DNA from: a virus | Reading direction: 5' to 3' (one strand) | IMG/VR virus record: IMGVR_UViG_3300035126_000842 | Location: 1-64,000 of that record | Length of the DNA stretch: 64,000 nt | Shown here: positions 42,166 through 64,000 of the stretch, in pieces | Layout of the letters: each line of letters opens with the position of its first letter | Position numbering within the stretch: position 1 is the stretch's first letter | Notes under the pieces: generated by a model | The model's database searches: none | What the model was told of the DNA's origin: nothing | Seen by the model: the letters and a program-made list of their open reading frames with translations, nothing else | Made by a program: the position numbers and the translations under genes

Positions 42166-45100
42166 TTACAGGCGGCTAAATGATTCTTTGGTTTGTATGT
42201 CGAGAATAGCATCTGTTGTTGTTCCTGAGAAACCTAAAAACTTCAACCAAAGATTTGCAATTTTAGCAGAATCTTTCTGTTGCCATTCATACGGACCTAC
42301 TCTTTTATCATAAAATCCTCTCTCATCACCAACTGCTGCTAATATACCATAAGTAAGTGATTTTGAAATAAGATCAATACTAGGTTGTAATGTTGCCATT
42401 TTAACTTGGAATAGGCTAGTGTATGTTTGCAAACCCATACCTGGTAGTGGCATAAAAGTATTATGCTCTTGTTGGAAACCTAAAATAAGTTGTAACGCTT
42501 TATTAAAAGCATAACCATCTAAATGAAACTCACCTTCATCTGCTGTTCCAAAAAATGGTAGAGGTGCTGATTTCGCTCTTAATTTTTTGTAGCGGTCTTC
42601 GTCATCAGGATCATACTCAAATAGCATACGACTAGTTAACCATAACACCAGTGCTATCATTACATCAGTAAATGTTTTAATTAAATTCCTCTTTTCATAA
42701 GGAGTTAAAGTACTCCAGTAAATGTTGAAGTTAGGATTTTTAGTAAAAATATTTTTGAAGTAATTGGCTATAAATCTTAGTGATGTTATATAGTAACCTT
42801 CTTGAACATCACCTGTTGCATAATTAATTCTTGGTGAAAACGACCATGCATCAAAAAATGATTTTTCTTTATTGTATTTAAAACTAGAACCAAAACGATT
42901 CATAAACATCATGTAAAAGAACCGTTTCATACTAAGAACCTGGTTATAAATAACAAACTTATCACCGTAGCTTTTACCTAAAGCTGATGAATCACCATTA
43001 GTTAATGCAATTTGTTGATGAATTCTATTTTTTATGAGATTGAATTTTACACCACCAACGTCATAAGTTTGATCTATACCACTTCTAAGAGAAAGTTTAC
43101 CATCTTTAATTTCCCATGCTTCCATGTAAGGTATTTCTGACTCCACTCCATTTGTAACAATCTTAACCTTTTCATAGTACATTCTTTGTGCCCATAATTT
43201 AATAGCACCTTGTGTTTCTAACCAAGTTCTGGGAGCTAATACAAATGATTGCCAATCTGCAGCATCTTGAGTATATGATCTATTAAAACTTCTACCTATT
43301 CTTTGTTTTGAACTACCTTGTTTTGGGTCAAAAGCATCTACAAGCATTTGCTCGGCAGTATATGTACCGCCTTGATAAGCATGTGTAGTTTGACCAAACA
43401 TATATTTTATTGCCCATGCTTCACCCTGAGAATAACTTTTCTTATCAACACCATCTTGTGCAGCAAGGTTAATTATGTTTTGCATACCCATTTGCACTCG
43501 GTTTCTTATAGCTGATTCTGGAGTAGAAAGAAATACAGTAGAGGTAAATCTAGTTAAAGAATTTACAGCCTTAAGGAGCATATGATTGTCAGATAGAAAA
43601 CCTCTTGTATTTTCACCTTCAAATATAGTCCTATTAAAAGATTCTACCATTTGTCTTCTAATACTAGCTTCTTTTTTATTTTTAGCACCTGCGAAAATTG
43701 TCAGGTTGTTTTCAAGAAACGCGTATTTATTAATCTTGTCTACTTCTTTCAATACGTTTTCATCATCAGCTAGTACTTTTTCTAAACCTTTTGCAATAGG
43801 CATTATTTTGACTTTCTCTTTTACCTCTTCTATACTGTAGAAATATCTAAACATAGAATAAGGTATATCCATGCTTACTTTATCTAATTCAATAGGATAT
43901 TTACCTGCAACCGGTATCTTAGATAATTCATCACCAAAAAAGTCTAGGGATACTAGTTTAAGTCTAGTACGTTTTTCTTCTTCTGTTTCAGCACTTGTTA
44001 TATTAGAAAATCCTTCTTCTGCTTCATCACCTGTTTTACCATACAGTTTAGCTTTAACGCTAGATAAGAATGATGAAAATCCAGATCTTGTATGACCAGA
44101 TAAAGTTTTTTGAGCTGCTTCAAAGTTGCTTTCAAAAAAAGAAGGTACTTGAAAATTAAGTCTTCCTAATTTAGAAGTTTCTTTTTGCTGTTTAAAAGAC
44201 ATGCTTTTTATATACTCAAGTAAATCCCACAGAGGTCTATCTGTTCTTTTTAAATTATAGTAATCTGTATTTACATACTTAGTTAAGTCTGTCTCAGAAT
44301 TCATAAAAGATTGATATTCTGAGTCAGATAAGTCAGGAATATTTGTAAGAAATTCTTCAGTTATTTTTTTACCTTTTGATTCAGCATATAATACTTCTAT
44401 TGGTTTTGGCAACCATTCTCCAAAAGCATTTATTGTAACACCCATTATACGAGGAGTTTTCAATTCCTCTTTAATTGTTACTTTATGATAGTTTCTAGAA
44501 GGAAAGTTTGTACGGATTAATTCGCCTTTACTGTTTCTAAATTCAATCATGTCCTTATAATTATCATTTATTTTTTGCTCCATATGGACTCCATTTGGAA
44601 CATAAGCAAATGATACTTTACCTCCTTCTGATACCTCATATTTTGTATGATGATCATCTATAAACTTTTTGAAGTCTTTGTTTTTTAGCGCTTTGATAAA
44701 ATTGTTGTCAGTACTAATAAAAGCTATGTCTACATACTTGCCGTTATTAATATTCTGGATAGCTTCTTTTCTATATATTTCATAAGCAGCTGTTTTACCT
44801 TTATATTGTATATCATAGAATTTACTCCACTCACCATTTATATATTCTTGCTCTGCATTAGAAGGTTGTTTACTTCTGAATTCTTTAAGAGCTTCACTAA
44901 TGTTAATGTATTTTTCATACAAAGCAAAGTTAGTTTGCTTAAGAGATTTATTTGCAGGAGGTTCTTCTGATTCATATTCAAAATCTCCAGCATATAATTT
45001 TCTTACTGTGTGCAATAACTCTATATCTTTTTCTGAAATATTTTTAGGTAAACCTCTTTCAATGTCAATTTCAATGTTTATTCTAAATAATTCATTTTCT

Positions 45101-48100
45101 ACAGCATTTACTTTAGCGATTGCTTCAGGTGTCATCAAGTCAATTAGCATCATTTTAGATCTAGGATCTGAATATAAAATGCGTAATTCACTTAATGTTT
45201 TACCTAGTTCTGACCGTCTTGCATTTAGTTCTTTTAATTTACTTGTAAAACTGGCAGATTTATTATTTGTATTTTCTATGTTACTAAATATCTGCTGTAC
45301 TAATGCAAAATATTCATCTTTTCTTTTGATATAAGTATTTTCAGCTAACCACTGACTAAATTCAGGACTATTAGCACCTAGCAGTTGTTCGTTTAGTTTA
45401 TAAGCTTCAGCAAACTTTTCTATAGTTTCTTCTCTTTCTATTTCTAAAGTGTTTTCAGTAATAGTATAGAAGTTTTTATACTCTTTAGCATCTTCGTAAT
45501 CTTGCCCTTCTTTAAGTTCACCGTTTCTTTTTCTTAAACTAGTTACTTCATTTAACAATATATATTGTTGTTCTATATCTTCTTGATACTGAAGTATATT
45601 GTCTTTTGATTCGGGTGAATCTATTCCTTGTTCAACTTTTATAGCGAGTTGTAATGTAGAAATCTTATCTTCTATTGCAAGACGTTTGATAAATATTCTT
45701 TTACCCCAGTCTGTAGCAAGCATTTGTTTTCTAGTACTATGCCCTGATAGTACAGAACCAAAGAAATATTTATCCTTAAGTTCTGATATTTCTCTAGCTT
45801 TTTCAACTTCTAAATTTAAGTCTTTATTTCTACGGGCTTGCTCTTGTTCAGCTTCTAATCTTCTTAAATCATTAGTTGCTTTAGATACTAAAGTTGAATG
45901 TAAGAATTCATAATAGTCGCTTTTTTCTTCTAATTCTATTTCTCTACCTTCATCACCTTCTTCTACAGACTTAACTAATCGGGTACCTTTAGTAATAATC
46001 TGCCGGTATTTGTTAGAATAGTTATACTTAGTTATTCCTGCTTTAGATTGTAACTCATTAAGTTTTTCAAAGTAATTAGTATAAACACCAACCATGTTAG
46101 CTTCTACATTATTGTATGCATTTTTCACAATACTACCTAATGTTCCATATACAGGGTCTGAAGATTGTATAGCGGATAAAACATATCCCTCAAGAAAATT
46201 AGAGTCACCTGCTTTACCGCTTAATAAATCTTCCATCTTCTGTTCAGAAATCAGAAGTTGGTCGCGTGTTTTAATATAGTATGCTTTTCTACTTTCTAAC
46301 AGAGGGTTAGAACCCTTAGCAGCAATTTCCTCTTCAATTTTATTGATGGCATCATTATACAATGAAGTTATACTGTCATTAACAGTAGATACTGTCATAT
46401 ATATAACATCTTTTATGTTTTTAAACCGCTGATCTTTTAACTGCTTTTGTCCGTTTTGTGCATTGACTATTGTTTCATTAAGAGATTGTGCTATAGAATT
46501 TTTAGGATCTATGCTAACAATAATTTTATTTAAACTTCTAGCAAGTGTTTCAAAAGATTTTAACATGCTTTCAAGTTTGTCTATTAAAACTAGATTTTGT
46601 CTAAAATCATCGCTAGATGTTTTATCAATCAATACTGTTTTATCAGGTCCCGCTAAATTATTAACAAGAGCTTGCATTTCTAACATACTGCTCATTAAAC
46701 GATATGCTTTTTGGGCATCGTTCTTTTCTATGTTGAGTGCTTCCCTTATTTCATCTGCCAGCTCTAACTGTTCTTCTATAACATATTTTCTATCTAGAGC
46801 AATTTCCTGTTTAATCTTTTCGAGATTACCTGTTTCAGAATTAAATATGATTGCTGCCAAATCAGGATCAATCATACTGTTATTAGTAAAGTATTCAGCA
46901 TTAGAATTTACTAATGATGTTAATACTTTTAAAAAGTCTTCAAGATTTGATAGACCAAACTTTACATTCTCCGGGTTTTTTGCAGCTTCTTTATTGTAGA
47001 CAGTCGCATCTGATATTAACTTTGCTGTTTTTTCTATTTCCTCTTGTACTTTAGTTAAATACTCTACATAATCTTGTGTAGTAAAGAGCTCTGCGTTAAG
47101 GTTGAACTCGCTCATTTTTAGCATCTCAGCTAAATCTGATAACGAAGTATAGGGAGATAGTTTACTTATGTTAATTTTAGAACCAAATATTTTTCTGAAT
47201 AACTGCTTAAGAGCGTAAAAAATTTTGTTTACAAAGTTATACAGAATACCATCCTCTTTGTTTTCTAGAAGTCTTTCTCGTGCTACGTTTTCAAGAACTC
47301 TTGTAATGTATTCTCGTTTGTAAGCGTTTGTATCAAAAGAGTATGCATTGGGATCATTGTCGATTTCGTTTTGCAATCTCTTTTCTACACCAAGTTGATA
47401 TGTAGCATCTACAGATTTACTTTCTTCAAAAAGATTATCAAAAAGACCTGGGTTTTCTTCTTCGATAGATTTAACCAAAGGGTGTAGGAATTCGTGTATT
47501 AATGTTTCAGGTGTTACATTACCTGATATTATGTAAACGGTACCTTTGTAGAAGAAAGACACACCCTGTCCTGTATAAGGGTTTGCTGCAGATTTAGTTA
47601 TTTCTCTAGCGTCAGCATCAGATACTACTTGATAATTAATAGTAGGAAAAGCACGTTGTAAAGTATCTAACACAGAAGTTAAAAAGTTATTAGCTTGCGC
47701 TGAAACTAGCTTATCAATATCAGAAGTTTTCATATTCTCATATTTGAGTATAGCTTCTTCTTCTAAACTATTAGCATATCCCGGAGCAATATTATTAATA
47801 GACTTTCTTTCTTGTGCTGTAAAATCAGAAGCTACAAGAACTTTCATCATATCAGGACTAATATTTATTCCTATTGAATAAACATTATTAGATAGCTGAA
47901 CATTTGCTACTAAAGAATTCCATTTTTTATTAATAGAGTCAGCAATCTTTTCAGCTATTTTTTTATTATCAGTATTACTAGGTCCTGATATCTGATTAGT
48001 ACTTCCCCATTTTCTTATAGTATTTTGAAGGGTAACATCATCTGTATATTCTACAGCAGCTACACCATAACCATACTGTAACATTTGTTTTGTTACATTA

Positions 48101-48129
48101 TCTTTAAAATCATTAATAGTACAATTCAT
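42166..48129 (-). CDS. giant virion-ejected protein with zincin-like (HEFLH) domain
   Basis: 1987 aa, mostly helical; TLIHEFLHP; last gene of the RNAP operon. Confidence 0.75.
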   Translation of the reverse strand: MNCTINDFKDNVTKQMLQYGYGVAAVEYTDDVTLQNTIRKWGSTNQISGPSNTDNKKIAEKIADSINKKWNSLVANVQLSNNVYSIGINISPDMMKVLVASDFTAQERKSINNIAPGYANSLEEEAILKYENMKTSDIDKLVSAQANNFLTSVLDTLQRAFPTINYQVVSDADAREITKSAANPYTGQGVSFFYKGTVYIISGNVTPETLIHEFLHPLVKSIEEENPGLFDNLFEESKSVDATYQLGVEKRLQNEIDNDPNAYSFDTNAYKREYITRVLENVARERLLENKEDGILYNFVNKIFYALKQLFRKIFGSKINISKLSPYTSLSDLAEMLKMSEFNLNAELFTTQDYVEYLTKVQEEIEKTAKLISDATVYNKEAAKNPENVKFGLSNLEDFLKVLTSLVNSNAEYFTNNSMIDPDLAAIIFNSETGNLEKIKQEIALDRKYVIEEQLELADEIREALNIEKNDAQKAYRLMSSMLEMQALVNNLAGPDKTVLIDKTSSDDFRQNLVLIDKLESMLKSFETLARSLNKIIVSIDPKNSIAQSLNETIVNAQNGQKQLKDQRFKNIKDVIYMTVSTVNDSITSLYNDAINKIEEEIAAKGSNPLLESRKAYYIKTRDQLLISEQKMEDLLSGKAGDSNFLEGYVLSAIQSSDPVYGTLGSIVKNAYNNVEANMVGVYTNYFEKLNELQSKAGITKYNYSNKYRQIITKGTRLVKSVEEGDEGREIELEEKSDYYEFLHSTLVSKATNDLRRLEAEQEQARRNKDLNLEVEKAREISELKDKYFFGSVLSGHSTRKQMLATDWGKRIFIKRLAIEDKISTLQLAIKVEQGIDSPESKDNILQYQEDIEQQYILLNEVTSLRKRNGELKEGQDYEDAKEYKNFYTITENTLEIEREETIEKFAEAYKLNEQLLGANSPEFSQWLAENTYIKRKDEYFALVQQIFSNIENTNNKSASFTSKLKELNARRSELGKTLSELRILYSDPRSKMMLIDLMTPEAIAKVNAVENELFRINIEIDIERGLPKNISEKDIELLHTVRKLYAGDFEYESEEPPANKSLKQTNFALYEKYINISEALKEFRSKQPSNAEQEYINGEWSKFYDIQYKGKTAAYEIYRKEAIQNINNGKYVDIAFISTDNNFIKALKNKDFKKFIDDHHTKYEVSEGGKVSFAYVPNGVHMEQKINDNYKDMIEFRNSKGELIRTNFPSRNYHKVTIKEELKTPRIMGVTINAFGEWLPKPIEVLYAESKGKKITEEFLTNIPDLSDSEYQSFMNSETDLTKYVNTDYYNLKRTDRPLWDLLEYIKSMSFKQQKETSKLGRLNFQVPSFFESNFEAAQKTLSGHTRSGFSSFLSSVKAKLYGKTGDEAEEGFSNITSAETEEEKRTRLKLVSLDFFGDELSKIPVAGKYPIELDKVSMDIPYSMFRYFYSIEEVKEKVKIMPIAKGLEKVLADDENVLKEVDKINKYAFLENNLTIFAGAKNKKEASIRRQMVESFNRTIFEGENTRGFLSDNHMLLKAVNSLTRFTSTVFLSTPESAIRNRVQMGMQNIINLAAQDGVDKKSYSQGEAWAIKYMFGQTTHAYQGGTYTAEQMLVDAFDPKQGSSKQRIGRSFNRSYTQDAADWQSFVLAPRTWLETQGAIKLWAQRMYYEKVKIVTNGVESEIPYMEAWEIKDGKLSLRSGIDQTYDVGGVKFNLIKNRIHQQIALTNGDSSALGKSYGDKFVIYNQVLSMKRFFYMMFMNRFGSSFKYNKEKSFFDAWSFSPRINYATGDVQEGYYITSLRFIANYFKNIFTKNPNFNIYWSTLTPYEKRNLIKTFTDVMIALVLWLTSRMLFEYDPDDEDRYKKLRAKSAPLPFFGTADEGEFHLDGYAFNKALQLILGFQQEHNTFMPLPGMGLQTYTSLFQVKMATLQPSIDLISKSLTYGILAAVGDERGFYDKRVGPYEWQQKDSAKIANLWLKFLGFSGTTTDAILDIQTKESFSRL

Positions 48130-48132
48130 ATT

Positions 48133-48993
48133 TTAGCAACTAGGAGGAACAGGAAACCCTGCAATAGGGTCAATCCCATTGTTAAAGTTATCATTTTTTC
48201 TTACATCTTGATTGTAGTCATCGAAATTTACTGTAGAAAGGTCGTAGTAACTTAGATCTATACCTACAAAACCCTCTTCTTGTAAAAAGTTGTAGAAAGA
48301 AGACATGTCAAAAACCTCATCCTCAGTATCTTTCAAAAACTCATAACCTGTAATGTTTGAATTATTTTGCAAATTATATTTGTTTACATAGTTTTTATAT
48401 AGTACAGGTTCTGTTTCTGGATTTATATATCCTTCTTGTAAACTAATTTTTTCAGGACCAAACGAATCACCAAACATATTTATACCCATTTCTTCATCTA
48501 ATCTAGCTCTTTTAACTAAATCTTCAAACTCTCTCTGTTTAGCAATTTGGTCGTAAGTCATTAACTCTTCTACTACAGGCGATGTTTCTTCTTTAACATC
48601 TACTACAGGTACTTCTTCAAATACATCTTCTTCTACTTTATTAACTGTTTGTGAATCACCAAACTGATTAATACTAGTTTGTCTAAGCATATTAGCATTA
48701 TATTGTTCAATATAACTTTGATAATAAGCATCTATTAAACTTGCAGGAGGTTTTATTTTAAGCTCATGTCCTCCTGTTACAGGATATCTACCTACAATAT
48801 CAGAATTATAGAGCTTGTTTATTTTAGCTGCTATTGCATTAGCTACTTTAAAAGCTTGACCTCTTGCTGAAAAATCACTATCCATAATGATAACACTATC
48901 AAAATTTAGAGATTTTACTCTTTTTGAAATCATAAGAGCTTTTATATCTCTTATTAATCCTTTACGGATATCTTCTTTAGCGCAAATATTCAT
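48133..48993 (-). CDS. acidic hypothetical ejection-operon protein
   Basis: ATG at 48993 overlaps the upstream TGA (ATGA); starts MNIC and ends PPSC. Confidence 0.7.
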   Translation of the reverse strand: MNICAKEDIRKGLIRDIKALMISKRVKSLNFDSVIIMDSDFSARGQAFKVANAIAAKINKLYNSDIVGRYPVTGGHELKIKPPASLIDAYYQSYIEQYNANMLRQTSINQFGDSQTVNKVEEDVFEEVPVVDVKEETSPVVEELMTYDQIAKQREFEDLVKRARLDEEMGINMFGDSFGPEKISLQEGYINPETEPVLYKNYVNKYNLQNNSNITGYEFLKDTEDEVFDMSSFYNFLQEEGFVGIDLSYYDLSTVNFDDYNQDVRKNDNFNNGIDPIAGFPVPPSC

Positions 48994-49748
48994 ATTCCAC
49001 AACTATTAATGTCTGTTATATCTAAACTGGGTAATCCCGAAGGAGAAATTATAACCTTATTACCACCTACAAACTCTTTAAATTCTTCTATATCTTGTTT
49101 AGAGCCTAATATATGAATTTGTTCTGGTTCAAATACAGAAATTACTGTTTGTATAGGTATAGCGTAATTATCTCCTTCTATTCTGTTTATAACAGCATCT
49201 GTGTTTTTTAAACTTTCATCATATTTAGGAGCAAGTATATTTTGAGAAGTTTGTTTACCTATTTTATATAAAGCTTCCGAAAGAGGTCTATCCATATCAT
49301 CAATGAATTCACCACTTGTTTTTTCTCGAATAGGTTTACTAATATTTAATAAAACAGGTAATATATTTTTACCATATTTTTTACTAAACTCTTTATTAGT
49401 TGTAAAATTATATACTCCTTCAATACTATTTAAAGTATTAAATTTAGGTTTTGTAGGTTTAAACTTATCAAATTGAGCATTTGTGCCATGATAAACAATA
49501 TCTTTTACTTTACTATCGGGAAATATAGTAGAAAGATACTGCATATATTGAGCTTTAGTGCCAATACTTGCAAGTTCTGGTGAATCTTTAAATACACCAT
49601 CAATGGCTTCCATTTTTCTTTTAAATGAATCCATAACATCTTTATTTTTAATAATAGATGTAACAAACTCATTTTTATTATTAATAAAATATTCTTTGAA
49701 TTGTTTTTCAGAATACTGTTTTCCTTTATATGTTATAATACAACTCAT
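48990..49748 (-). CDS. ADP-ribosyltransferase-like (ART-PolyVal-type) protein
   Basis: IVYHGT..FDKF...GVYNFTT...KYG..ILPVLLNI.KP. Confidence 0.65.
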   Translation of the reverse strand: MSCIITYKGKQYSEKQFKEYFINNKNEFVTSIIKNKDVMDSFKRKMEAIDGVFKDSPELASIGTKAQYMQYLSTIFPDSKVKDIVYHGTNAQFDKFKPTKPKFNTLNSIEGVYNFTTNKEFSKKYGKNILPVLLNISKPIREKTSGEFIDDMDRPLSEALYKIGKQTSQNILAPKYDESLKNTDAVINRIEGDNYAIPIQTVISVFEPEQIHILGSKQDIEEFKEFVGGNKVIISPSGLPSLDITDINSCGI

Positions 49749-51174: not shown

Positions 51175-51175
51175 A

Positions 51176-54100: not shown

Positions 54101-57100
54101 TTCTTTTGTAAACTCAGGCATTGTAGAGTATAGTTCTTGAAACTTTCTATCAAAAAGAATAAAGTCAAGTATAGATGCAAATCTTTGACGGTCAGGGCGT
54201 AAAGCAAATGAAAGTTTATTAATAGTTGAATCAAACATTTGGTTTAAAGCTAGATAATGTATTAACCCTATTGCCTGATTTAAAACATTTGTATTGTAAT
54301 CAGAGTTACCTATGTAATGGGCAGCATTAAAATCTAGAGATTCATATACTAATTTAGACTCTTCAGCAAATACGTTATTAAGTTTTACTATACTTGTCTT
54401 TGTAAACTTTTGCCCTAGAATAGTATTAACTTTATTTTTGATTTCACTGCTGTAGTTTGATTGTTCTACTAATTTTCTGAATTCATTAGGTTGTATAATA
54501 CTTTTAAATTTATCTACTGTAGATGGAGATTTAGTATTATTTAATATTCTACCAAAAAATGGTAACAAAGGGGTTTTGGCTATTTCTGTGTATCTAACAT
54601 ACAGGTTTACCATAGGATTTAGTAGGAAAATAGATACTGGTTCTTCGTTAACACCTGCTCCCGTTAAACCTAATTGAAAAGATGCTGTATTTTTTCTAAT
54701 ACCCAAACGTAACAACCAAGGGTCTTTTTCTACGTCAACGGAAGCTTGAATCTTTTGCCCTGTGTAATCACCTTTGTCTTTACCATTTAAGTTAGTAAGA
54801 GCAGAATAATCTAAAGCATCTATTTCTACAGTAACGTTATCTGAATCTACTATTACATCAATTTCATGTTTAGTAGTTTTATAGTTGAAAGGTATTTTTA
54901 CTACTGTTACCGAGCCGTTTTTACCTATTATAGCATTAGGCATTTGTAGATTTGACTCAGCCATTTCATTAAGCATTGATGAAAATACGGCAATAATACC
55001 TAGACTTTTTTTACCGGCACTATTATAATCAAGCTTAAGTAATGATTGAAAAGGGTCTGTAATGTAACTATAGTTAGTTGCTATAGGAAACTCTGATAGC
55101 GTTATGTTATCATTACGTTTAGATATTTCTTTTAAGTTTTCATCTGTAGTAGGAAGAATGAGATACGGCAACAGTTCTTCAATAAGAAGCAATGAAGCTA
55201 CATTTTTGTTTATTCTATTGCCTAAAGCACCTGCTATGTTTTTGTAGTAGTAAACTTCTTTCTGATACTCTTCTGCTACTTTAAGCATTTGCTTTTCAGC
55301 TTCGGTTAAAGTATCTTCTTTAGTTTCTAATTCAGATTTATTTGTAAATATATCAGCGATTTTCTGATTGATATCTTCAATTTTTTTCTCAATAGACTCT
55401 AAAGTTTCATCACCTTCTAGCGTTAACTCATCATATTCAGCAAGAGCTTCTTGATTGTTATTAACTACTTTACGATATTGTTTTGCTTTATTAGCACTGG
55501 CTAATTCAGCTACATTTTGCATTCCAGTTCTTTTTAAGTCTGTAGTTACAGCACTTAATATTTTTCTTAATAGTTTATAGTAAGCAGCAGATCTTTCTTC
55601 TTCTACTTTGAGTTTACTATTAAGTTCTTTTATTTTAGCTTTGCTTTCATTGTAGCTTAGTGAATACTTGAGTATATTACCTTCTTCGTCAAAGCTAGGA
55701 TAAAGAAGTGTCAGTTTATCAACGTCAAAGTCACCACCTGATTTAGCTACTATTTCTGAAGGGAGTACAATTATATTACTTGCAATAGGGTCTAAAAATT
55801 CTTCAATTTCTAAAACCTCCATAGAAGGGTGAGCATGCACCGGAATTCTATCACCTGTAATGATAAACTTGTCCATATGCAATTTCTTCCATTCAGGTTT
55901 TGCCATCATCTCATTTAGTCGCGGTATTGTACCAATAGAATTACCGTCAGTGTGAGTAAGATTTAAAAGTTTGTAAAAATCACCCTGCATTGAGATTTTA
56001 ACTTGCGCAGGAAGAATTGTACCATCTTTTGCTTTTCTATATGATTTTAATTTGTTGCTGTAACGGACTTTGTCTTTAAGTACTCTTTTAAGTAGAGGGT
56101 CTGTCTCTACAAATTCCCAACCGGTATTTGCAACCTGAATCAAAGGTTCACCAGGAAACTTTTGCTGAATAATATTTTTCTCAATAATGTTTGCTATAAT
56201 GTTATCTAATATTACAGCTAAACCAGAACCTAAATAATCGTATGCAAAAGCTCCATCAATAACAGCGATCATATCTGTTTCATCTTCTGTTATATAACCT
56301 TTTTTCTTTAATAGTTCTTTGATGTAGCCTGCAAATTTTTCCATCCCTTTTTTATCAGGGTTTTTTAAATCTATTTGCAATGTAGCAGATAGTTTGTCCT
56401 TAAACATCTGTGTAGCATCTGCAATAGATTGTTTATACTCTTCTACTAAAGGTCCATACTTTTTAAATTCAGATTTAAGTTTACCATTTTCAAAGAACAA
56501 ATCTAATATCTTAGTTCTTTTCTGACTAGATACCAAAGACTTACCTTTAAATACAGGAGCAATATAAAGCTGGTCTTTAAAAAATGTAGTATTTATAAAG
56601 TTTTTGACAAAAGGTTTATCTGTTAAGTTACCTTCGTTGTCATAGAAAAGGTTAGATGTTTTATCAAAGAAGAAACTATTTTTAGAACCAGATACATAAG
56701 TTAATAATCCTATCTTTTCATTAAGCATTTTATTGTAGATAAGATTAAGATACCTTTGCTTTTGTTCTTCCCCTATTTTAGGATTAAGAACAGGTGGTAT
56801 TAATGGTACTATGTTAAACTTAAGCGTAAACGCTTGTATGTTTTTGTAAACGTTATCTTTTTTATACTTGGCAGGTCCCGCAAACTGATACTTTAATGAA
56901 GGAAAGAATTCACTAATATTCAAAGGTAATGTTTCTCCTCGCATTATTTTGTTATAATACAACTCTTTAGTATTGTCCCAATTACCTGAACTTAATGATA
57001 GCATTCTATAAGTAGGCAGTAAGACTACACCTTGCGCATCTGCTTCTTTCATATCAGAATACGGTTTTGTTCTTTTTTCTGCTACTTTAACATCTTCTAT

Positions 57101-60100
57101 TATACTTTTAATTGCTTCCTCGTATTCATTATAATTTTCTGATGTTACTTTAACATCTTCCAAAATAGCAACAGGTAGTTCTTGCATATTTATAATTTCA
57201 CTGCTGCTGTCACTAAAATCAAAAATGCTTTTTATTAAGTTTAAATAATCAGGATCTGAATAAACTGGATTTCCTCCTGAACCCCAAAGAGCATTTCTTT
57301 TACTAAATTCATCTTTGTCTAAGTTATAATTTGCTAAATCACCATAAATAAATATATTAGATTCAATATTAAATAAAGTCATGTTCATGTAAGAATGCTT
57401 GTATAGTCTTTGACCATCAGCTTCTACTTCAATACCAAGAGTTTTATTTATTGAAGCATCTATATTTGTTAAAACGGTAGGATCAATTTTTGCAAAACTA
57501 TTAATACCTGCTGTTATTCTAGAGTCGTGTTCTACTTTTATAGCGGCTTTAATAGCATCTGCTTGTGTACCTTGCAGTTTTTGTTTTACTGATGTAATAA
57601 CGTTTTCAACATTATCATTTCTTTTTGAATCATAAACTTCTTTTATTAATGATTCTACAAGGTTTGTAGTTTCAGAATCGATATAATCAAAAAACAAATA
57701 TTTTTTACCAAACTTACTAAACATTTCTACATTGTCATGCTCTCCTTGTTTTGTTTGATATACACGGATAGCTTCCGCTATAAAATAGTTATACAGTTGA
57801 TTGTAGAATACATTTTCAGCTTGAACATCTGCTGTAGCGTAACTTATAAAAGGTACCTTATCAATACTCATATAGTGTTGAGTACTTTTACCTGCATGCT
57901 GATACATTCTATAAGCATTATGAATACGAAGATTAATCATTGCTTCAATATTAGCAGTGAATACATTGTTGTCGTTTTCTGTAATACCTGTATTAGTATC
58001 GTTAGCAATACCAGACGCTTTAAACAATCTAAACTTTTTACCCTGTTGGTACACTAACTTATTAAGTAATGAGTCTGCCCAAAACGGATTTTCGTTAGGA
58101 GATTGATTGATACTTTCTTTTAGATTTTCATCGTTGTATAATTGTACATATCTCATCATGGATGACTGCAACGAAAATTCATTTTCGATATCACCGCTAG
58201 GATTAGTGTACATGTTATCGTTAGTAGTAATCTCAATCTGATTAGCAGCAGCAAATATCTTCTCTACTAAAGTTAATTGCTTTAAGTCTTTTATAGTAGG
58301 ATCTCCCTTTTTAAGCAAATTAACAATATTATCGACACTAGATAATTTGTTTCTATTATTGAACAGAACCATGTTTAATGCATTTAATCCATCAATAATT
58401 GTAGAATCTTTTAACATATCTTTTATTAAAGTATCAGGATATTCAATACTACTGTTTAGGATACCTAATAATTTCAGATAGTTAACTATTTTATATATGT
58501 TGTCTTGGTATGTAAATACAACCGTGCTTTTATACTGTGAAGATGTAGGGTCGTACAGCTTTTTATTTTCAGGGTGCGCAAAAAACTTTGCAGCATTAAA
58601 CTTTAATTCAGAACCTACTTGTTCTAAACCGTATCTATTTTGTTCTTCCACAGATAGTTTTGAAACAAAGTCTGTGTATTCTATTTCTCTCTTATTCCAA
58701 AAACTAATAAACTCTGTATTGCCTATATATGATTCTAAAATATATTGTTTCTTTTTAGAGTCATACGATACATTTGCTATAATAGGAAGTACTTTTTCTC
58801 TAGATAAACTTTTTAATAATGAGTTAAATGTAAAGAAGTGTTCTTTTACGTGCTCATAAAATGCAGGGTATGCTTTGGCTTTTTCTTCTATAACATTCTC
58901 TGCATTTTGTATATTTAGCTGTTGCCATTTTTCTAGAGTGTTACCTCCTATTATTCCATATACACTTGCATAAAATAACTTATCTGTTATTGAACTACCA
59001 TTTTGCGCATAAGCTTTAATAATTTCAGGTATGCTTAAAGGATCTAATCTACCAACTAATCCTGGTGTAGATATTAACTTAGTAATTGCAATGTTTGCAT
59101 TATCTAAGGTTAAAGGTAAACCCGCAGAATCTCTTTCTACATAATGAGAACCTAATACAATATCACCGTTTCCTGCAACACTATATTTGTTTTTAGAAAA
59201 CAACTCGTAAAATTCTCCTTTAGTAAGAATAGATTCAGCACCGGAAAGCATATTTACTTTATAGAAAAGGTCTCCTACTTTTTTAATACCTTCTGTTAGC
59301 GCATCGTTTATATACAAAGTATTATCCTTCAGCACTTTTATCTTAGGCATTTTTGTAAACATGAACTTTAAGTAAGGGGAAAAGTCATTATGTACCGAAG
59401 TGCTATTGTTACCTTTATCAGAATACTGACCATCATCTTTAGAAAGAAAATCTTCATCTTCATCTTGATAGATTTCATTGATGAATTCGTTCTCTTCTAT
59501 ATAATACTTAATAATACCTTGGTTTTCTGTTCTGCTTTTTAATTTTGTTACATCACCTAAATTTTGCAGAGCAATTCCAAAAAGCTTTACTGTTGACTCA
59601 TATGATTTTTTTAAGTCTTCGTTAGTAGTTTGCTCTACTAAGGATTTAAAAAGATTATATCTACTTTGCAGTCCTCGTGATATAAGCTGATAAACTGATT
59701 CTATGTTATCTACTTTAAATAGAAGTCTAACACTACCTAATATTTTATCTTGAGCACCTGCTTGCATTAGCATTGGTGTTATACCGGCACTAAATATAAT
59801 AGAGTCAATAGTCTTTTGTAGTAAAAGCGTTTCTTCACTAGTAAACTTATATCTAGTTTTTTTATCACCAACACCTACTATTGTTTTTTGCAAGATATTA
59901 GTTGAACCTTGATTGATATCATATCTGTAGGCTTCAAGTTTTTTAATATCTCCTGTGTATAAAGTATTAAAAATTTCTCGTATAGCAGGGTTATCAAAGG
60001 CATTTATATTATTATCTAAAGCAGTAGTTTTACTAAATAGAGAATCAAGAAGTTTTTTGATTGCTTTAAAAATTGCTTTTATTGCTTTAGTAACTACAGA

Positions 60101-62401
60101 GTTACTTTCATCTATTGCAAATAATCTATACTGATCTGCTAAAAATTCCATTGCTTCCTCATAGGTATCTATTTCAGAAGCGGGTTTTGTTATTTGTTTA
60201 TTCTTATAGTAGTATGTAACTCTACCTTTTATCTTTTTTACTTCTTCAAAAAGCTGTTGCTTTTGTTCTGGAGTAAACCACATTTCAGTAAACTCATGCC
60301 ATGCTTCATGATATAAGTCAGTATATTGTGATCCATTATATAGTGTAACACCTGCTTTACTCCAAGTAGCAAAAGCTCCTGAATTTACTATATCAAAAAG
60401 TTTTTGCAATGGTACATTTTTGGTTACAGGATTACTGTTAAACCATTCTAATGCTTTTTGATTAAGCTTATCTGTAGATAAGTTTGCAATGTTTTTAGAC
60501 ATCCATAGTACATCTCCTAAATCTTCTTCTGCTACAAATTCATCTTTTTGAGTACTAAATGGTTCAGTAAAATTTATTGCTAGTATAGGATTCAATATAG
60601 GCAATGTATCACTACCTTCTGATACAGTAACCGGTAGTTTATAATATTGTGCTATGTAGTCTGCACTATTTATTTTTGTTAATGTAAGAATTTTATTATC
60701 ACCATCTTGAACTATTGATGGAATTTCAATTTCTTGTTCATTAGGATTAAGCAAATAATTTTGCTCTAGACTTTGCCGTAAAGCTTGCTTAAAACCTTCT
60801 TTGTTATTAAGTTTTCTGTATTCTGTATAAGTCCTATCTGTTGGATTATAAATCTGTACATACCAATTTGACTCATAAGACTTTAGATTATGTTTTGCTG
60901 ATGCAGTTTTAAAGGTTATTTCTTTAAAATAAAAAGATTCAAATATTCTTTGTTTTTCTTCGGTGGTTAATGGTACCCCTTGATATAGTATTTCATCATT
61001 ACTCATTAACTCTACTAATGCATCTACAATAGGAAGTAAACGCTCGTTTTTCCTTTCTGTAGGAGACCCTAGTTTATTATTACCTAAGAAAATTGTAATG
61101 TCAAATTTATCATTTATGACCAAGCGAGCATTCTGTTTTACTCCAGAAACTTTAGCTGGGTTATAACTAACTGATGTTATACCACTTAAAAGCTCTCTCA
61201 AATCATTTGTAATATAGGTATCTCCTTTTTCTTCTAACTGGGATAGTTTAGAGATGTATCTTAAATAACCTATTCTACTATTTATATCATCTATTTTTAT
61301 TAAGTTACTTTCAGGATTTACTAAAATTTTGTCTTTAATAAAACGAGCAATATTTCTTGTAGTAGAAAGCAGATTATTTACATAGTCCTTTTTTTCGTTT
61401 TCTATTATTTCTATACTATTTTCTAACTCAATTATTCTATCAGCATTTCTTTCTGTTTCAAGATTTTCCTTGAGTGTATTTAAAGTATTGACTTTATACT
61501 TATTAGGATTTAAAACCATTCCTCTTTTTAAGAGTAAGTCTAATAGTACACTGTCTGTACTACCGTCCATATATTTATCTATGTTGTTTATTACTTCGTC
61601 TGGAATACGAGAGTAAGAAGCTATATAATAGCTACCACTAGAATCAATAACTCCATCATCATTAATAAACACAGGTTCCCCTTTAGCATCTGTTATAAGA
61701 AAGATATATTTGTTTCCTTTAGGATTACCATAAATTTTAGAAGAATCTACATCTTTTATATTATAAAGCCTGATGTAAAGGTTATTTAAAACAGGATCTT
61801 TATCTGAAATAGTTTTGAGAGTATTACTTAAAAAGTAATCAATAAACTTTCTAAAAGCTTTTACACCGTTGCTTTGAATTACATTTTTTGATAAATCGCT
61901 GTTGTCATAAAACTCAGAATCAGTTGGTTGAAATAACAAAGCAATGTTCATTGTATTAATTTCAAACAAAGATTCTTCGTAATCTCTATCATCAACAGTA
62001 GTAATACTTATTGGAGTTATAACAGGATCTACAGTAGGTTTAAGATTAAGATACTCAAGTACTTTGCCCTTAGAAGAATCAGTTGCTATATTCCAAGGTA
62101 TATTTCCAAGCTGTTCAACAATATACTCTGGAAAATACTTTGCATTTTTTTTATTTCTTGCTGTATTAACTAAAGCTACGGCACCTACTAAAGTAGCAAG
62201 TAAAGCTTTTTCATACTTTTGAGACGGTTCATCTACTATATCCGTAACTTGTTTATAGTAATCTTGAATAAAACTTTTAAGGTTTAACTCTTGATTTGGC
62301 TCTAAACTATCAAAAGCTTTTTTATAAGATAAGACGAAATGATTTTCAAAATTCTCTAAATCTTCCGTTGTAATGTTGCAAGAAGTAGCTGATATATTCA
62401 T
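51176..62401 (-). CDS. virion-packaged DNA-dependent RNA polymerase (crAss-like), polyvalent
   Basis: 3741 aa; RIP..AH.SM...IVLP...AKSGGDFDVDKL catalytic motif (55718-55732); HEAWH zincin motif (60296-60310); extra C-terminal domains. Confidence 0.9.
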   Translation of the reverse strand: MNISATSCNITTEDLENFENHFVLSYKKAFDSLEPNQELNLKSFIQDYYKQVTDIVDEPSQKYEKALLATLVGAVALVNTARNKKNAKYFPEYIVEQLGNIPWNIATDSSKGKVLEYLNLKPTVDPVITPISITTVDDRDYEESLFEINTMNIALLFQPTDSEFYDNSDLSKNVIQSNGVKAFRKFIDYFLSNTLKTISDKDPVLNNLYIRLYNIKDVDSSKIYGNPKGNKYIFLITDAKGEPVFINDDGVIDSSGSYYIASYSRIPDEVINNIDKYMDGSTDSVLLDLLLKRGMVLNPNKYKVNTLNTLKENLETERNADRIIELENSIEIIENEKKDYVNNLLSTTRNIARFIKDKILVNPESNLIKIDDINSRIGYLRYISKLSQLEEKGDTYITNDLRELLSGITSVSYNPAKVSGVKQNARLVINDKFDITIFLGNNKLGSPTERKNERLLPIVDALVELMSNDEILYQGVPLTTEEKQRIFESFYFKEITFKTASAKHNLKSYESNWYVQIYNPTDRTYTEYRKLNNKEGFKQALRQSLEQNYLLNPNEQEIEIPSIVQDGDNKILTLTKINSADYIAQYYKLPVTVSEGSDTLPILNPILAINFTEPFSTQKDEFVAEEDLGDVLWMSKNIANLSTDKLNQKALEWFNSNPVTKNVPLQKLFDIVNSGAFATWSKAGVTLYNGSQYTDLYHEAWHEFTEMWFTPEQKQQLFEEVKKIKGRVTYYYKNKQITKPASEIDTYEEAMEFLADQYRLFAIDESNSVVTKAIKAIFKAIKKLLDSLFSKTTALDNNINAFDNPAIREIFNTLYTGDIKKLEAYRYDINQGSTNILQKTIVGVGDKKTRYKFTSEETLLLQKTIDSIIFSAGITPMLMQAGAQDKILGSVRLLFKVDNIESVYQLISRGLQSRYNLFKSLVEQTTNEDLKKSYESTVKLFGIALQNLGDVTKLKSRTENQGIIKYYIEENEFINEIYQDEDEDFLSKDDGQYSDKGNNSTSVHNDFSPYLKFMFTKMPKIKVLKDNTLYINDALTEGIKKVGDLFYKVNMLSGAESILTKGEFYELFSKNKYSVAGNGDIVLGSHYVERDSAGLPLTLDNANIAITKLISTPGLVGRLDPLSIPEIIKAYAQNGSSITDKLFYASVYGIIGGNTLEKWQQLNIQNAENVIEEKAKAYPAFYEHVKEHFFTFNSLLKSLSREKVLPIIANVSYDSKKKQYILESYIGNTEFISFWNKREIEYTDFVSKLSVEEQNRYGLEQVGSELKFNAAKFFAHPENKKLYDPTSSQYKSTVVFTYQDNIYKIVNYLKLLGILNSSIEYPDTLIKDMLKDSTIIDGLNALNMVLFNNRNKLSSVDNIVNLLKKGDPTIKDLKQLTLVEKIFAAANQIEITTNDNMYTNPSGDIENEFSLQSSMMRYVQLYNDENLKESINQSPNENPFWADSLLNKLVYQQGKKFRLFKASGIANDTNTGITENDNNVFTANIEAMINLRIHNAYRMYQHAGKSTQHYMSIDKVPFISYATADVQAENVFYNQLYNYFIAEAIRVYQTKQGEHDNVEMFSKFGKKYLFFDYIDSETTNLVESLIKEVYDSKRNDNVENVITSVKQKLQGTQADAIKAAIKVEHDSRITAGINSFAKIDPTVLTNIDASINKTLGIEVEADGQRLYKHSYMNMTLFNIESNIFIYGDLANYNLDKDEFSKRNALWGSGGNPVYSDPDYLNLIKSIFDFSDSSSEIINMQELPVAILEDVKVTSENYNEYEEAIKSIIEDVKVAEKRTKPYSDMKEADAQGVVLLPTYRMLSLSSGNWDNTKELYYNKIMRGETLPLNISEFFPSLKYQFAGPAKYKKDNVYKNIQAFTLKFNIVPLIPPVLNPKIGEEQKQRYLNLIYNKMLNEKIGLLTYVSGSKNSFFFDKTSNLFYDNEGNLTDKPFVKNFINTTFFKDQLYIAPVFKGKSLVSSQKRTKILDLFFENGKLKSEFKKYGPLVEEYKQSIADATQMFKDKLSATLQIDLKNPDKKGMEKFAGYIKELLKKKGYITEDETDMIAVIDGAFAYDYLGSGLAVILDNIIANIIEKNIIQQKFPGEPLIQVANTGWEFVETDPLLKRVLKDKVRYSNKLKSYRKAKDGTILPAQVKISMQGDFYKLLNLTHTDGNSIGTIPRLNEMMAKPEWKKLHMDKFIITGDRIPVHAHPSMEVLEIEEFLDPIASNIIVLPSEIVAKSGGDFDVDKLTLLYPSFDEEGNILKYSLSYNESKAKIKELNSKLKVEEERSAAYYKLLRKILSAVTTDLKRTGMQNVAELASANKAKQYRKVVNNNQEALAEYDELTLEGDETLESIEKKIEDINQKIADIFTNKSELETKEDTLTEAEKQMLKVAEEYQKEVYYYKNIAGALGNRINKNVASLLLIEELLPYLILPTTDENLKEISKRNDNITLSEFPIATNYSYITDPFQSLLKLDYNSAGKKSLGIIAVFSSMLNEMAESNLQMPNAIIGKNGSVTVVKIPFNYKTTKHEIDVIVDSDNVTVEIDALDYSALTNLNGKDKGDYTGQKIQASVDVEKDPWLLRLGIRKNTASFQLGLTGAGVNEEPVSIFLLNPMVNLYVRYTEIAKTPLLPFFGRILNNTKSPSTVDKFKSIIQPNEFRKLVEQSNYSSEIKNKVNTILGQKFTKTSIVKLNNVFAEESKLVYESLDFNAAHYIGNSDYNTNVLNQAIGLIHYLALNQMFDSTINKLSFALRPDRQRFASILDFILFDRKFQELYSTMPEFTKESLLSIKRNSVRSSFYINTGSLPKTLLESLSPSMIQVVDFIYRNHYQDKIYESQMPFKDTKTAIKLYSNIIRSVMLQKLLNSRYKNDVYKGFNVIASTEFDADNNAVQTSVLKNDFNILLTSAVKVIEVTDEANNVVEKSLYVNRLNIALFAAGTSSDLDSSDYYVAYNIVKPDYRILKGTKRLEKYLIEYEIAKNKYPFNDFKNSTYYKQVYKNIEEDATYKDIKSKKPNLSKSQYAYQLFLRDMATISSMPVSVLSTKSISQTSTNIGYFINQIKVAYANVLLQAYPVLNNLNTKIKDNSDTLQIEIVGIKDNLEYYRKQIQTLIDPTKRTLSNSFDNMVLSDILTGVGLFSVMQNNTSSTSSKVQQLFVNESLLKNLATVAMSKPELEKLLKSIESDVVAANNHKKPGYIYVVPEQESETKNTLDVVPYRNIKTTKSTLFVAKSVSTSTTDTTQTAVSTQPETARTIYDKINKDKKTKSTNVEIAGQGDLSDVKYSAKTFWSEVVPEARAWFGDNLIIAYRGKKTNTFLQNYKGRLSGEPALTIGNPFDWQAETGTRDEQGIKSTKRFIHWMITGDNMGVTEATPEYRQAIIDDIKNGKLKNRPIIYYQEKGYATHATALDYLINEYNWNQPTTPTVSEGIEINSKQTGLGNDLTNVHFATNGKSKFDIIPTDKSLKNPDSVKLDSNDLAVKWAIDKGLKTYADAYGQSVEAWYKSNNAMSKGIPKGTEGDAYDMKLMIGLITDKLKQYPNLVTQITERGGLAFLDKSTHTMGTGRWSSKNPKNMFMNALKQAYQNVSATPTVTAKPTTQTLESKTELEVYIPDYSLAKSVHNTIQGRVAKGENFATVKNELYKKFYDSISEKYDQIPKDVNFNIRYVFGNNIIETKSIQDEARIKNVLVYDSITNRDPEIEKILTGLLYINAFVLYQKFGKINKQFLPPNLVAKVVVRETIDKANINENELNKVLEIIRNC

Positions 62402-62421
62402 ATTGTAAATATAGTAAAATT

Positions 62422-64000
62422 TTAAGATTTAGGGTTATTAGGAGTACATGGTTTGTTAAATATAGCCTTAGCATCAACTTCAGGTAAGTTGTCCATATCT
62501 TTACCAGACCCAGACGGTGTATCAATTTTTTCTCCTTCACCTGCAGATTCTTGTTTAAATGATAAGATCTTATTTTTGTTCTTAGAAACAGAATCTACAA
62601 AACTAGATATTGATTGTGATTTAAGCTGAGGCTCTGCACCTATTGCAGAAAATACAAAGTAATTTAAATTATCACCAACAATTTTTTCAAGTACAATAAA
62701 GTTTGTTAAAGGATTATTTAAATCAGTAATCGATACTGTTCCTAAACTAACATTAGCTAAGGTATTTATTACTTTTCGCAGAAACTGATTTTTATCCGAA
62801 ACAGTAGTCCTTTCAGAATTGTAAAAACTTTCAAAGTAATTAAAAAGCTCGGTTGCTTTTGTATCAAGGTTATCTCTTAAGCTACTAAATTCTGAATAAA
62901 AAGGAGATTCTTTAGTTAATATTTTACTGAAAAGCTCAATGATTTCGTTTGAATTTAAACTACTAACATTAACACCACTTAATTCAGTTATAAGATTGGT
63001 TAGCAAAGATTCATCAAAAATAATTCTATTAAAGAGATTCATTTTTAATCTGTAAAAAGCAGCTTCTGCTTCTACTACATCAGCACCTTTAAGTAAAACA
63101 TCGCTAAAAGTTTGTCCTTCAGTTAATACTATGACTTTTTTATCAAATTCATTTTCAGCTGCTATATACTTAGCAACATCAGTCTCACCTGTTAAAATTC
63201 TATTACGTAATATATCACTACGTTGTTCACTTAAAACTGCAATATCAGCGTCTTTAATAAATCTTTTACTGCCTGTTACGTAAATTTTATTTGTATTTTT
63301 TTCATTTTTTCCTTGATTTATTTGATTTAAAACAGGATTGTACACTAAACTATCTAGATTTTCATAACCTACTTTTTTATTAAAAGCATTGATTATAGCA
63401 AATATATTTTCATTTGTAAACTCCAAATCACCCGCAAAATTTTTTGTTTTATTTATTTCAGCAAGTCTGTTTAGCAATAAATCATCTACATCTATAAGAG
63501 TGTATTTTCTTTCACTTTCAGGACGACTATTGTATTCTTGTACTAACCGTGTTTTTCCTATACCAGGAGTACCGTATATAAGTTTACCTACAAAAAACTC
63601 AAGGAAATCTTCTGTGGGTTTTATTATATTGTCTAATAAGTTTTTGTTTTTATCAAAAACAGATTTACTTATACCAAACCTAGCAACAAACATTTCTTTT
63701 TGCTCAGGAGATGTTGCTGTTTTGTATAAAGAAACCGCCTGTCTATTATCTTCATTAAGAAGTGTATTGTACCAATACTCAAATAAACCTGGGTTTGCAT
63801 TAAAGAAATTATTAGAAAGCGTTGTTATCTCAGAAGGTTTACTTACAGAACCTTTTGTGTTGTTAAATACAAATACAGGAATTCCATTCACAGAAGTTAC
63901 TGTTACAGAACCAACCTGTTTATTGTCTTTGTATATAGGATAAGTAGTATCAAGTTTTATAGATGACACATTTCCTATACTAGACGTATTAGTTTGTGTA
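62422..64000 (-). CDS. large ejection-operon protein with P-loop domain (5'-truncated by window edge)
   Basis: LIYGTPGIGKT...LIDVDD; the frame stays open from the GTG at 63969 to the window end. Confidence 0.7.
   Translation of the reverse strand, partial: TQTNTSSIGNVSSIKLDTTYPIYKDNKQVGSVTVTSVNGIPVFVFNNTKGSVSKPSEITTLSNNFFNANPGLFEYWYNTLLNEDNRQAVSLYKTATSPEQKEMFVARFGISKSVFDKNKNLLDNIIKPTEDFLEFFVGKLIYGTPGIGKTRLVQEYNSRPESERKYTLIDVDDLLLNRLAEINKTKNFAGDLEFTNENIFAIINAFNKKVGYENLDSLVYNPVLNQINQGKNEKNTNKIYVTGSKRFIKDADIAVLSEQRSDILRNRILTGETDVAKYIAAENEFDKKVIVLTEGQTFSDVLLKGADVVEAEAAFYRLKMNLFNRIIFDESLLTNLITELSGVNVSSLNSNEIIELFSKILTKESPFYSEFSSLRDNLDTKATELFNYFESFYNSERTTVSDKNQFLRKVINTLANVSLGTVSITDLNNPLTNFIVLEKIVGDNLNYFVFSAIGAEPQLKSQSISSFVDSVSKNKNKILSFKQESAGEGEKIDTPSGSGKDMDNLPEVDAKAIFNKPCTPNNPKS

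Follow-up and report, generated by a model that had tools for sequence, protein, structure and literature searches.

The 64,000-nucleotide (nt) stretch studied here (hereafter the window) comprises positions 1 to 64,000 of IMG/VR virus record IMGVR_UViG_3300035126_000842 and is the first 64 kb of a complete phage genome of 122,313 bp. A minus-strand late operon ends with six cargo proteins and one homing endonuclease gene, and the cysteine (Cys) residues of the six proteins follow a strict terminal pattern. In this chain of 9,119 amino acids (aa), whose members are numbered link 1 to link 6 in gene order, only 10 Cys were found, all of them within 8 residues of a terminus and none internal. 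They make up five facing pairs: link 1 carries Cys at its C-end only, links 2-5 at both ends and link 6 at its N-end only, and the outer ends (the N-end of link 1 and the C-end of link 6) are Cys-free. We consider it fairly likely that the six cargo proteins form one thread, in which the C-terminus of each protein is joined to the N-terminus of the next through these Cys, most likely as a disulfide. The genome also encodes a Crass-type capsid (PF23898 Crass_capsid, E 3.7e-33) together with a portal (PHROG portal, 4e-95) and a large terminase (TerL, 2.5e-61), and the source phage is thus crAss-like. The links and their junctions are listed below.

62422-70227 (window part 62422..64000, the C-terminal 525 aa), minus strand: link 1, 2601 aa, with Cys2594 only (codon 62446-62448)
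62378..62448, minus strand: junction 1, where the link 1 end ...KPCTPNNPKS faces link 2 MNISATSC (Cys8)
51176..62401, minus strand: link 2, RNA-polymerase-bearing, 3741 aa, with Cys8 and Cys3741 only
51166..51181, minus strand: junction 2, where the link 2 end ...IIRNC (Cys3741) faces link 3 MFC (Cys3)
50416..51174, minus strand: link 3, GNAT-fold protein, 252 aa, with Cys3 and Cys251 only
49745..50425, minus strand: GIY-YIG/NUMOD3 homing endonuclease, 226 aa, between links 3 and 4, with Cys34, 65 and 70; not a link
48990..49748, minus strand: link 4, ART-PolyVal ADP-ribosyltransferase (ART), 252 aa, with Cys3 and Cys250 only
48982..49001, minus strand: junction 4, where the link 4 end ...NSCGI (Cys250) faces link 5 MNIC (Cys4); the genes overlap (ATGA)
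48133..48993, minus strand: link 5, orphan, 286 aa from ATG (MNIC...), with Cys4 and Cys286 only
48121..48138, minus strand: junction 5, where the link 5 end ...PPSC (Cys286) faces link 6 MNC (Cys3)
42166..48129, minus strand: link 6, the last link, 1987 aa, with Cys3 only and no C-terminal Cys

The original prediction, made from the letters of the window, had proposed head-to-tail pairing of these proteins. Its Cys counts and quoted terminal peptides were all correct when the open reading frames (ORFs) were rechecked, and the endonuclease within the operon has internal Cys only, as it had said. Head-to-tail pairing also implies a first link without an N-terminal Cys. The start of link 1 lies outside the window, beyond what the earlier reader could see; in the whole genome it reads MDNFSDLQKD and contains no Cys.

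Such a distribution is highly improbable by chance. By chance, all 10 Cys would be confined to the 8-residue ends with a probability of ~1.7e-20. With the plus-strand background of 1.54% Cys, ~139 internal Cys would be expected in the chain and none was observed. Meanwhile, the remaining 124 proteins of the genome contain 1.35% Cys and have Cys in only 8 N-ends and 9 C-ends. Cys on both sides was found at 5/5 chain junctions versus 0/98 other same-strand junctions of the same genome (<=100 nt; Fisher exact test ~1e-8, worked by hand). The junction between the 961-aa protein and link 1, just upstream of the chain, has Cys on neither side despite the gene overlap.

The same rule was observed in relatives. 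We retrieved 80 IMG/VR loci with the polymerase motif alone, and counted junctions between consecutive same-strand ORFs lying between the first and the last ORF of >=800 aa. Six ORFs were left out of this count: five identified by Pfam as GIY-YIG, ferritin-like or YkuD-like, and a 217-aa ORF in L079, which matched no family and was excluded on position alone. Among the apparent exceptions, the 197-, 205- and 229-aa ORFs are GIY-YIG endonucleases and the others are ferritin-like or YkuD-like. In all 80 loci the polymerase-bearing protein has Cys almost exclusively at its termini, and at 119 of the 121 non-redundant junctions Cys lies within 10 residues of the end on both sides. Altogether, 261 of the 310 Cys in the relatives' cargo (449,458 aa) are terminal. 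The terminal Cys (hereafter the tags) stand at residue 3-6 at the N-end and at 1-9 from the C-end, with 205 TGT and 35 TGC codons counted, and are always equal in number at C- and N-termini within a block. At most junctions the genes follow each other closely, the gap being -4 to +12 nt.

The outer ends of the relatives' chains behave as they do in the window. The product of the last gene was expected to lack a C-terminal Cys, which is true of link 6 and of 42 of the 43 complete last proteins in the relatives. An N-terminal Cys is absent from 12/12 first proteins whose start has no Cys-ended upstream fragment before it. Eight other complete first ORFs (>=800 aa) do have an N-terminal Cys; seven of them are preceded by a truncated Cys-ended fragment, and for the eighth, in L062, the contig ends first. 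The tabulation across related operons that the original prediction had called for returned both terminal enrichment and, in nearly all last proteins, a Cys-free C-end.

Cultured and reference crassviruses obey the rule as well. In phi14:2, g067 has only Cys1797, which is its last residue, g066 only Cys3 and Cys2179, and g065 only Cys3, which makes a total of four Cys over 5,398 residues. Virion tandem mass spectrometry (MS/MS) underlies the annotation of all three, and g066 corresponds to gp66 RNA polymerase (RNAP), the crystallised polymerase. In crAss001, gp47 has a sole Cys, 3 from its C-end; besides Cys5 and Cys2404, gp50 contains one internal Cys; and gp49 has only Cys5. As the gp47 gene lies on the other strand from gp50 and gp49 and the facing tags are still present, the tags are not a by-product of a junction in DNA or mRNA. 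Two further genomes, cr271_1 (Intestiviridae) and cr4_1 (Suoliviridae, with recoded stops), also follow the rule. Experiments on crAss001 virions revealed structural disulfides and placed gp47, gp49 and gp50 in the virion by MS, with the cargo cysteines unmentioned (PMC10172136). The window chain shares the Cys rule, the RNAP motif and local similarity with phi14:2 g067-g066-g065 and crAss001 gp47-gp50-gp49, although the similarity is weak and the chain has six links instead of three. In the window, three small links (the GNAT protein, the ART and the orphan) and an endonuclease separate the polymerase from the last protein.

Comparison of split and fused genes further ties the tags to protein ends. 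In G003, homologues of link 1, link 2 and the link 3 tail are joined in that order in one 5498-aa protein with a single Cys, which is C-terminal; part of the window portion of link 1 is homologous to the N-terminal third of this protein. Giant proteins of G004 and G005 include the ART domain internally, and no Cys flanks it. The distance of a peptidase-like domain from the start of the polymerase protein varies among relatives (160-300, 600-1000, 1250-1460 or ~1700-2100 residues), and in crAss001 this domain is found at the C-terminal end of the preceding protein, gp47. Judged from these sequences, the site at which the polypeptide is split has moved many times, always with the Cys pair at the cut. 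The pair tracks the moving split site, which suggests that the Cys belong to the termini as such. As the pairing model predicts, the tags are kept wherever the genes are separate and are absent where they are fused.

Small links obey the rule in the same manner. Of the 80 loci, 13 encode small proteins (169-583 aa) with Cys at both ends, placed after the polymerase and before the last protein; one of these proteins is again an ART-PolyVal protein. A search with link 3 gave 41 metagenomic proteins, of which 24 carry Cys <=6 residues from the start and <=3 from the end; just one of these 24 has a further internal Cys. The both-tagged relatives have in common a ~45-aa tail ending KKC[SN], which in link 3 is the conserved module formed by its last ~45 aa and ending KKCN, and many of them begin with the head M-x-C-(I/K)-I-(I/K)-Y-K-G. 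The middles of the tagged small links vary, being GNAT, Zeta-toxin/AAA_33-like kinases, ART, HExxH domains or of no recognised kind. Over its last 42 residues, link 3 shows 100% identity to relatives with an unrelated upstream domain (an HExxH protein). Similarly, the first ~85 residues of link 4 (MSCIITYKGK...) are nearly invariant and the remainder diverges. The finding of the same heads and tails on different payloads fits the earlier idea that any effector gaining both tags could join the chain.

GIY-YIG genes, called in the relatives by Pfam or by similarity to the window endonuclease, stand precisely between a tail and a head of this kind in the window, G001, G002, G003, L003 and L099. 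Such genes stand between links in G001, G002, G003, L003, L025, L062, L079 and L099, in no case with a facing terminal Cys pair; the L025 endonuclease has Cys within 10 aa of each end. The genes inside the blocks that are untagged and without a facing pair are GIY-YIG endonucleases, ferritin-like and YkuD-like. Tags on the small enzyme links and not on the endonucleases inside the block are as the pairing model would have it. One untagged ferritin-like gene (PF00210, E 2e-22) occupies L095:13273-13758 in the cargo block. From the sequences of window region 49740-50560 and of L001-L004, the region has the appearance of co-conversion tracts left by a homing endonuclease through which payload cassettes are shuffled, and the conservation of the head and tail modules may reflect connector function, co-conversion by homing, or both.

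The co-fold of adjacent C- and N-ends proposed in the original prediction was run for link 3 residues 185-252 with link 4 residues 1-110. The score was 0.58, the best of three controls reaching 0.02, and the runs agreed in at least 72% of contacts with a partner pLDDT (predicted local distance difference test) of at least 56. Of 80 solved complexes, 58 reached the mark in the calibration, as did 2 of 110 mismatched pairs; at scores <=0.60 only 7 of the 80 solved complexes reached it, and both passing mismatches fall in this range. The predicted contact between the two ends thus lends weak support to the pairing.

A disulfide at a junction with this signature has been solved elsewhere. In the cryo-electron microscopy structure of cyanophage A4, the C-terminal helix of gp27 is docked in gp26, and gp27 Cys1715 forms a disulfide with gp26 Cys5 (PMC12002296). 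In Anabaena phage A-4L, gp27 (1717 aa) has only Cys1715 and gp26 (1114 aa) only Cys5, and the two are encoded by consecutive genes on one strand. The A4 pair resembles the window in having its sole Cys 3 residues from the C-end of one product and at residue 5 of the next, and the single-Cys signature of this type (C-end of protein n, N-end of protein n+1, otherwise Cys-free) was found at the five window junctions. Like the presumed window cargo, the A4 proteins are internal virion proteins that leave via the tail. The pair differs from the window chain in comprising one junction instead of five, with no RNA polymerase and no enzyme links, and in being part of a folded pentameric pre-ejectosome. 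No match between window proteins and A4 gp26 or gp27 was found by blastp at E <= 0.01, and as far as the sequences tell, the likeness is one of pattern and not of descent. Neither a general rule nor a chain is drawn from this bond in the A4 paper (PMC12002296). The arrangement proposed here would be new as a multi-link, modular form of A4's single head-to-tail bond, in an unrelated and very abundant phage order. Two neighbouring A-4L proteins may be mentioned: gp28 (L098 11322-14498), which is internal, bears lytic domains and is 1058 residues long, contains no Cys other than 1036 and 1039, a CxxC near the C-terminus, and gp29 has no Cys.

Cys depletion itself is known from Schitoviridae. Their ejection proteins are Cys-suppressed, with 0.00075% Cys in gp71 homologues, and the stated reason is passage through the envelope (PMC11445570). 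As in the window, giant particle-borne RNA polymerases and their companions (N4 gp50, DEV gp71/gp72/gp73) are almost Cys-free, and the window cargo shows suppression of this type (0 internal Cys in 9,119 aa versus 1.35% elsewhere in the genome). However, N4-like proteins have no terminal tags, whereas the window combines suppression with near-obligatory Cys at the inner ends. Cysteine is unmentioned in a 2026 N4 paper. Beyond the A4 and Schitoviridae work, we found no literature on crassvirus cargo cysteines, a disulfide chain or terminal cysteine in ejection proteins. Hence the earlier statement that no description was known stands for the crassvirus chain, but not for the A4 junction or for the Cys suppression of N4-like phages, which are both published.

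Polyvalent proteins offer another comparison. Known from phages and conjugative elements (PMC5512222), they share with the window an ART-PolyVal domain, HExxH peptidase-like regions and, presumably, the delivery of unrelated effector domains with the DNA. The domains of a polyvalent protein are linked through peptide bonds, with release proposed to be the work of embedded peptidases (PMC5512222), whereas the window encodes separate Cys-tagged products. The window does not combine several effector domains in one polypeptide, its ART and GNAT being the products of two genes; the ART of G004 and G005 is internal to a giant protein. The polyvalent-protein paper makes no mention of cysteine or disulfide (PMC5512222).

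We propose that the six proteins would be made separately and then packed as particle-borne cargo. Inside the particle, the C-terminal Cys of each protein would be joined to the N-terminal Cys of the next, with a disulfide as the most likely bond. The product would be an unbranched thread of ~9,100 residues, running from the 2601-aa protein through the RNA polymerase, the GNAT protein, the ADP-ribosyltransferase and the 286-aa protein to the 1987-aa protein. As internal Cys are purged, oxidation could yield end-to-end links only, and no loops or branches would jam the narrow tail channel. The thread would then be pulled through the tail, and in the reducing host cytoplasm the links would be cleaved, releasing the polymerase and the enzymes.

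This proposal draws on the distribution of Cys and its conservation, the split/fusion rule, the independence of the tags from gene adjacency and the shared modules, all of which were observed here. Presence in the virion, disulfides in crassvirus particles and the A4 bond are borrowed from experiments on relatives. Every sequence-level prediction of head-to-tail pairing that could be checked held. The bond itself and its chemistry are inferred, as are the gene-order pairing and any role in ordered packaging, sequential ejection or release by reduction. If true, the thread would explain why the cargo is Cys-free and how separate gene products exit as one. It bears on a question raised by the crAss001 structure, namely how about a megadalton of protein is packed and passed through a narrow tail, and in which order. 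It would also explain the delivery of host-modifying enzymes (ADP-ribosyltransferase, acetyltransferase) at the first moment of infection, and would supply a simple sequence rule by which injected proteins can be recognised in uncultured phages. The window is a rich example, as two of its six links are small host-modifying enzymes.

Several points weigh against this proposal. The crAss001 maps do not resolve the cargo, the two thiols of a junction could also hold a metal, and pairing in gene order is deduced only from parity and adjacency of the tags. Many crassviruses inhabit anoxic guts. No thioredoxin or glutaredoxin gene was found in the genome, and the search for Erv1 was uninformative because its control was silent. 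Exceptions to the rule also exist: 2 of the 121 junctions have no C-terminal Cys within 10 aa (one has a Cys 19 from the end), one of the 43 last proteins does have a C-terminal Cys, and one to three internal Cys remain in some relatives, in two cases directly beside the catalytic motif. Links 1, 2 and 6 are only weakly homologous to crAss001 virion proteins (E 1e-4 to 5e-9 in a small search). Lastly, there is a recurrent variant in which the tail Cys is 63-71 residues away from the end, with a Gly-rich linker and then a small domain behind it. It occurs in eight link 3 relatives (P0012, P0021, P0022, P0032, P0036, P0040, P0041, P0044) and in L095. In the G003 ART link the tail Cys is at residue 268 and the protein continues into a peptidoglycan-binding region. 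A disulfide at such a non-terminal tail Cys, in the long-tail variant or in the G003 link, would leave a short side branch.

A different chemistry with the same topology, in which each thiol pair holds a metal ion or makes another thiol-based link, appears unlikely. Each junction offers exactly two thiols on flexible ends, assembly takes place in a reducing cytoplasm and in many cases in anaerobic hosts, and no oxidase gene was found (the Erv1 control being silent). Nevertheless, no conserved His, Asp or extra Cys beside the tags could complete a metal site, A4 as the sole solved case of the signature shows a disulfide, and disulfides are present in crAss001 virions.

The thread might also be cross-linked without order, any end joining any other (N-N, C-C, homodimers or rings) and the product still being unbranched; we give this a small chance. 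With at most two thiols per protein, threads or rings would result whatever the pairing, and the same head and tail modules recur on many small links, so that no junction specificity is evident from the sequence. What disfavours random joining is that single-Cys end caps with the Cys on the inner side only are found in nearly all relatives, that tag numbers are equal, and that the heads and tails of a given junction type are conserved as pairs. The co-fold of a tail with its neighbouring head (0.58) adds weak support on the same side.

Improbable, in our judgement, is the anchoring of the proteins elsewhere through their Cys, to the inner capsid, portal, DNA or lipid, with the parity of the tags being incidental. 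Cargo does need some hold in the capsid, and no structure locates the termini. Yet anchoring leaves unexplained the Cys-free first N-terminus and last C-terminus of nearly all relatives, the joint loss of both Cys on fusion and their joint gain at new split sites, and the direct pairing in A4.

Two further readings are contradicted by the data. In the first, which is very improbable, the tags have no function: Cys would be selected against internally, as documented for Schitoviridae ejection proteins (PMC11445570), and merely tolerated at floppy ends. Tolerance predicts Cys at ~7-12% of ends, whereas it was seen at 119/121 junctions and at near-zero frequency on outer ends, and N4-like proteins do without tags altogether. 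The second, to which we assign next to no weight, regards the Cys codons as the by-product of a nucleic-acid signal at the junction (coupling, a homing-endonuclease site or a promoter), as the tight gene coupling (-4 to +12 nt gaps in most junctions) and the GIY-YIG genes and unusually conserved flanks at some junctions might suggest, but crAss001 gp47 and gp50 keep their facing tags on opposite strands, TGT and TGC are both used with variable spacing to stop and start codons, the pair is absent from the 98 other same-strand junctions (<=100 nt) of the window genome, and endonuclease-free junctions obey the rule equally.

Three other candidates were rejected. Intramolecular N-to-C closure of each protein fails because the conserved end members lack a second Cys. 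Inteins or split inteins were dismissed as the origin, as no Hint or intein family is present in any link, tags 3-8 residues from the ends leave no room for intein halves, and the endonuclease is free-standing. A lipoprotein-type N-terminal Cys was discarded because no signal peptide or lipobox precedes MxC (N-termini read by eye).

Returning to the disulfide-linked thread, the module data lead to a wider and more tentative suggestion, which we regard as possible but rather doubtful: a modular, redox-cleavable daisy chain. Cys-bearing head and tail connectors might string any payload enzyme framed by them onto the polymerase thread, to be co-injected and released by reduction, and homing endonucleases between tail and head segments might shuffle the cassettes among phages. 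If true, the daisy chain would be the split-gene counterpart of polyvalent proteins and a general means of effector delivery by the most abundant gut phages.

The identity of the links was examined by family, motif and structure comparison. The earlier labels of ART and GIY-YIG were borne out by Pfam, with link 4 matching ART-PolyVal (PF18760, E 3e-13) and the endonuclease ORF being clearly GIY-YIG/NUMOD3. Link 3 scored 18.4 bits for GNAT in Pfam, under the 20.7 cut-off. It has the acetyl-CoA motif (Q/RxxGxG/A) as QNKGYG, and a homologue carries PF08445. In the AlphaFold2 (AF2) model the core has a pLDDT of ~80, and the top PDB matches are nearly all GNATs (prob 1.0, E 5e-5, TM 0.34-0.51). A GNAT fold for link 3 is therefore supported by the model despite the sub-threshold Pfam score. 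In this model pLDDT is <50 at residues 1-6 and 244-252, which places both Cys on flexible termini outside the predicted GNAT core.

Link 2 has the catalytic motif GGDFDVDK near residue 2225, in which G.D.D.D is invariant in six relatives, and shows local similarity to crAss001 gp50 and cr271_1 (tblastn, blastp). The putative RNAP label of link 2 rests on this two-barrel DxDxD motif and on the local gp50 similarity. As a side observation, an internal Cys lies in or just after the polymerase DFDID motif in L002:5831-6166 and L007:5786-6103 (KLFCYDP, RLGCDFDID). Region 589-855 of link 2, which includes an HExxH (HEAWH, residue 698), is similar to the C-terminal portion of crAss001 gp47. Link 6 has an HEFLH motif near residue 212 and weak similarity to crAss001 gp49. 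The HExxH motifs in both giants may be polyvalent-protein peptidase modules; no Pfam peptidase family matched the HExxH regions of links 2 and 6 at E <= 0.01.

Other searches with the window cargo were negative. No Pfam or PHROG family matched the 3741-, 2601-, 1987- and 286-aa proteins, and no relative of the 286-aa link 5 was found among 5.8 billion proteins, where only those of similar length were considered. Link 6 gave no tblastn match in 50,697 phage records, and no related IMG/VR loci were found with the protein or with a four-sequence alignment. Likewise, phmmer of the window cargo against crAss001 and cr271_1 proteins gave no match, whereas blastp gave weak local matches.

In the long-tail variant, the linker is of the GGGKLKAEKG type and the domain of ~65 aa ends ...AKYGL(V/I)I(S/P)K. 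In L095:13764-17401 and L101:10001-12834, this variant is followed by an untagged ~630-aa protein and then by an MxC head; in L095 the ~630-aa protein is a YkuD L,D-transpeptidase by Pfam.

On its downstream side, the cargo operon apparently ends at a G+C-rich hairpin with T/A runs, seen in the sequence between the convergent operons:

42123..42165, no strand assigned: G+C-rich hairpin with T/A runs, apparently marking the end of the cargo operon

The convergent gene on the other side of the hairpin ends at 42122. Upstream of the chain, the three proteins directly adjoining it (961, 796 and 914 aa; genome 70227-78335, L008:8227-16335) have exactly two Cys each, spaced 5-11 residues apart (128/134, 488/499 and 553/558), so close that these pairs would form only tiny loops. 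The 914-aa protein contains peptidoglycan-binding and endolysin-like regions, and a 1897-aa protein noted alongside them has no Cys. A 270-aa protein (genome 79071-79883, L008), which adjoins a Cys-rich 242-aa protein, has its only Cys at positions 8 and 11 as a CxxC.

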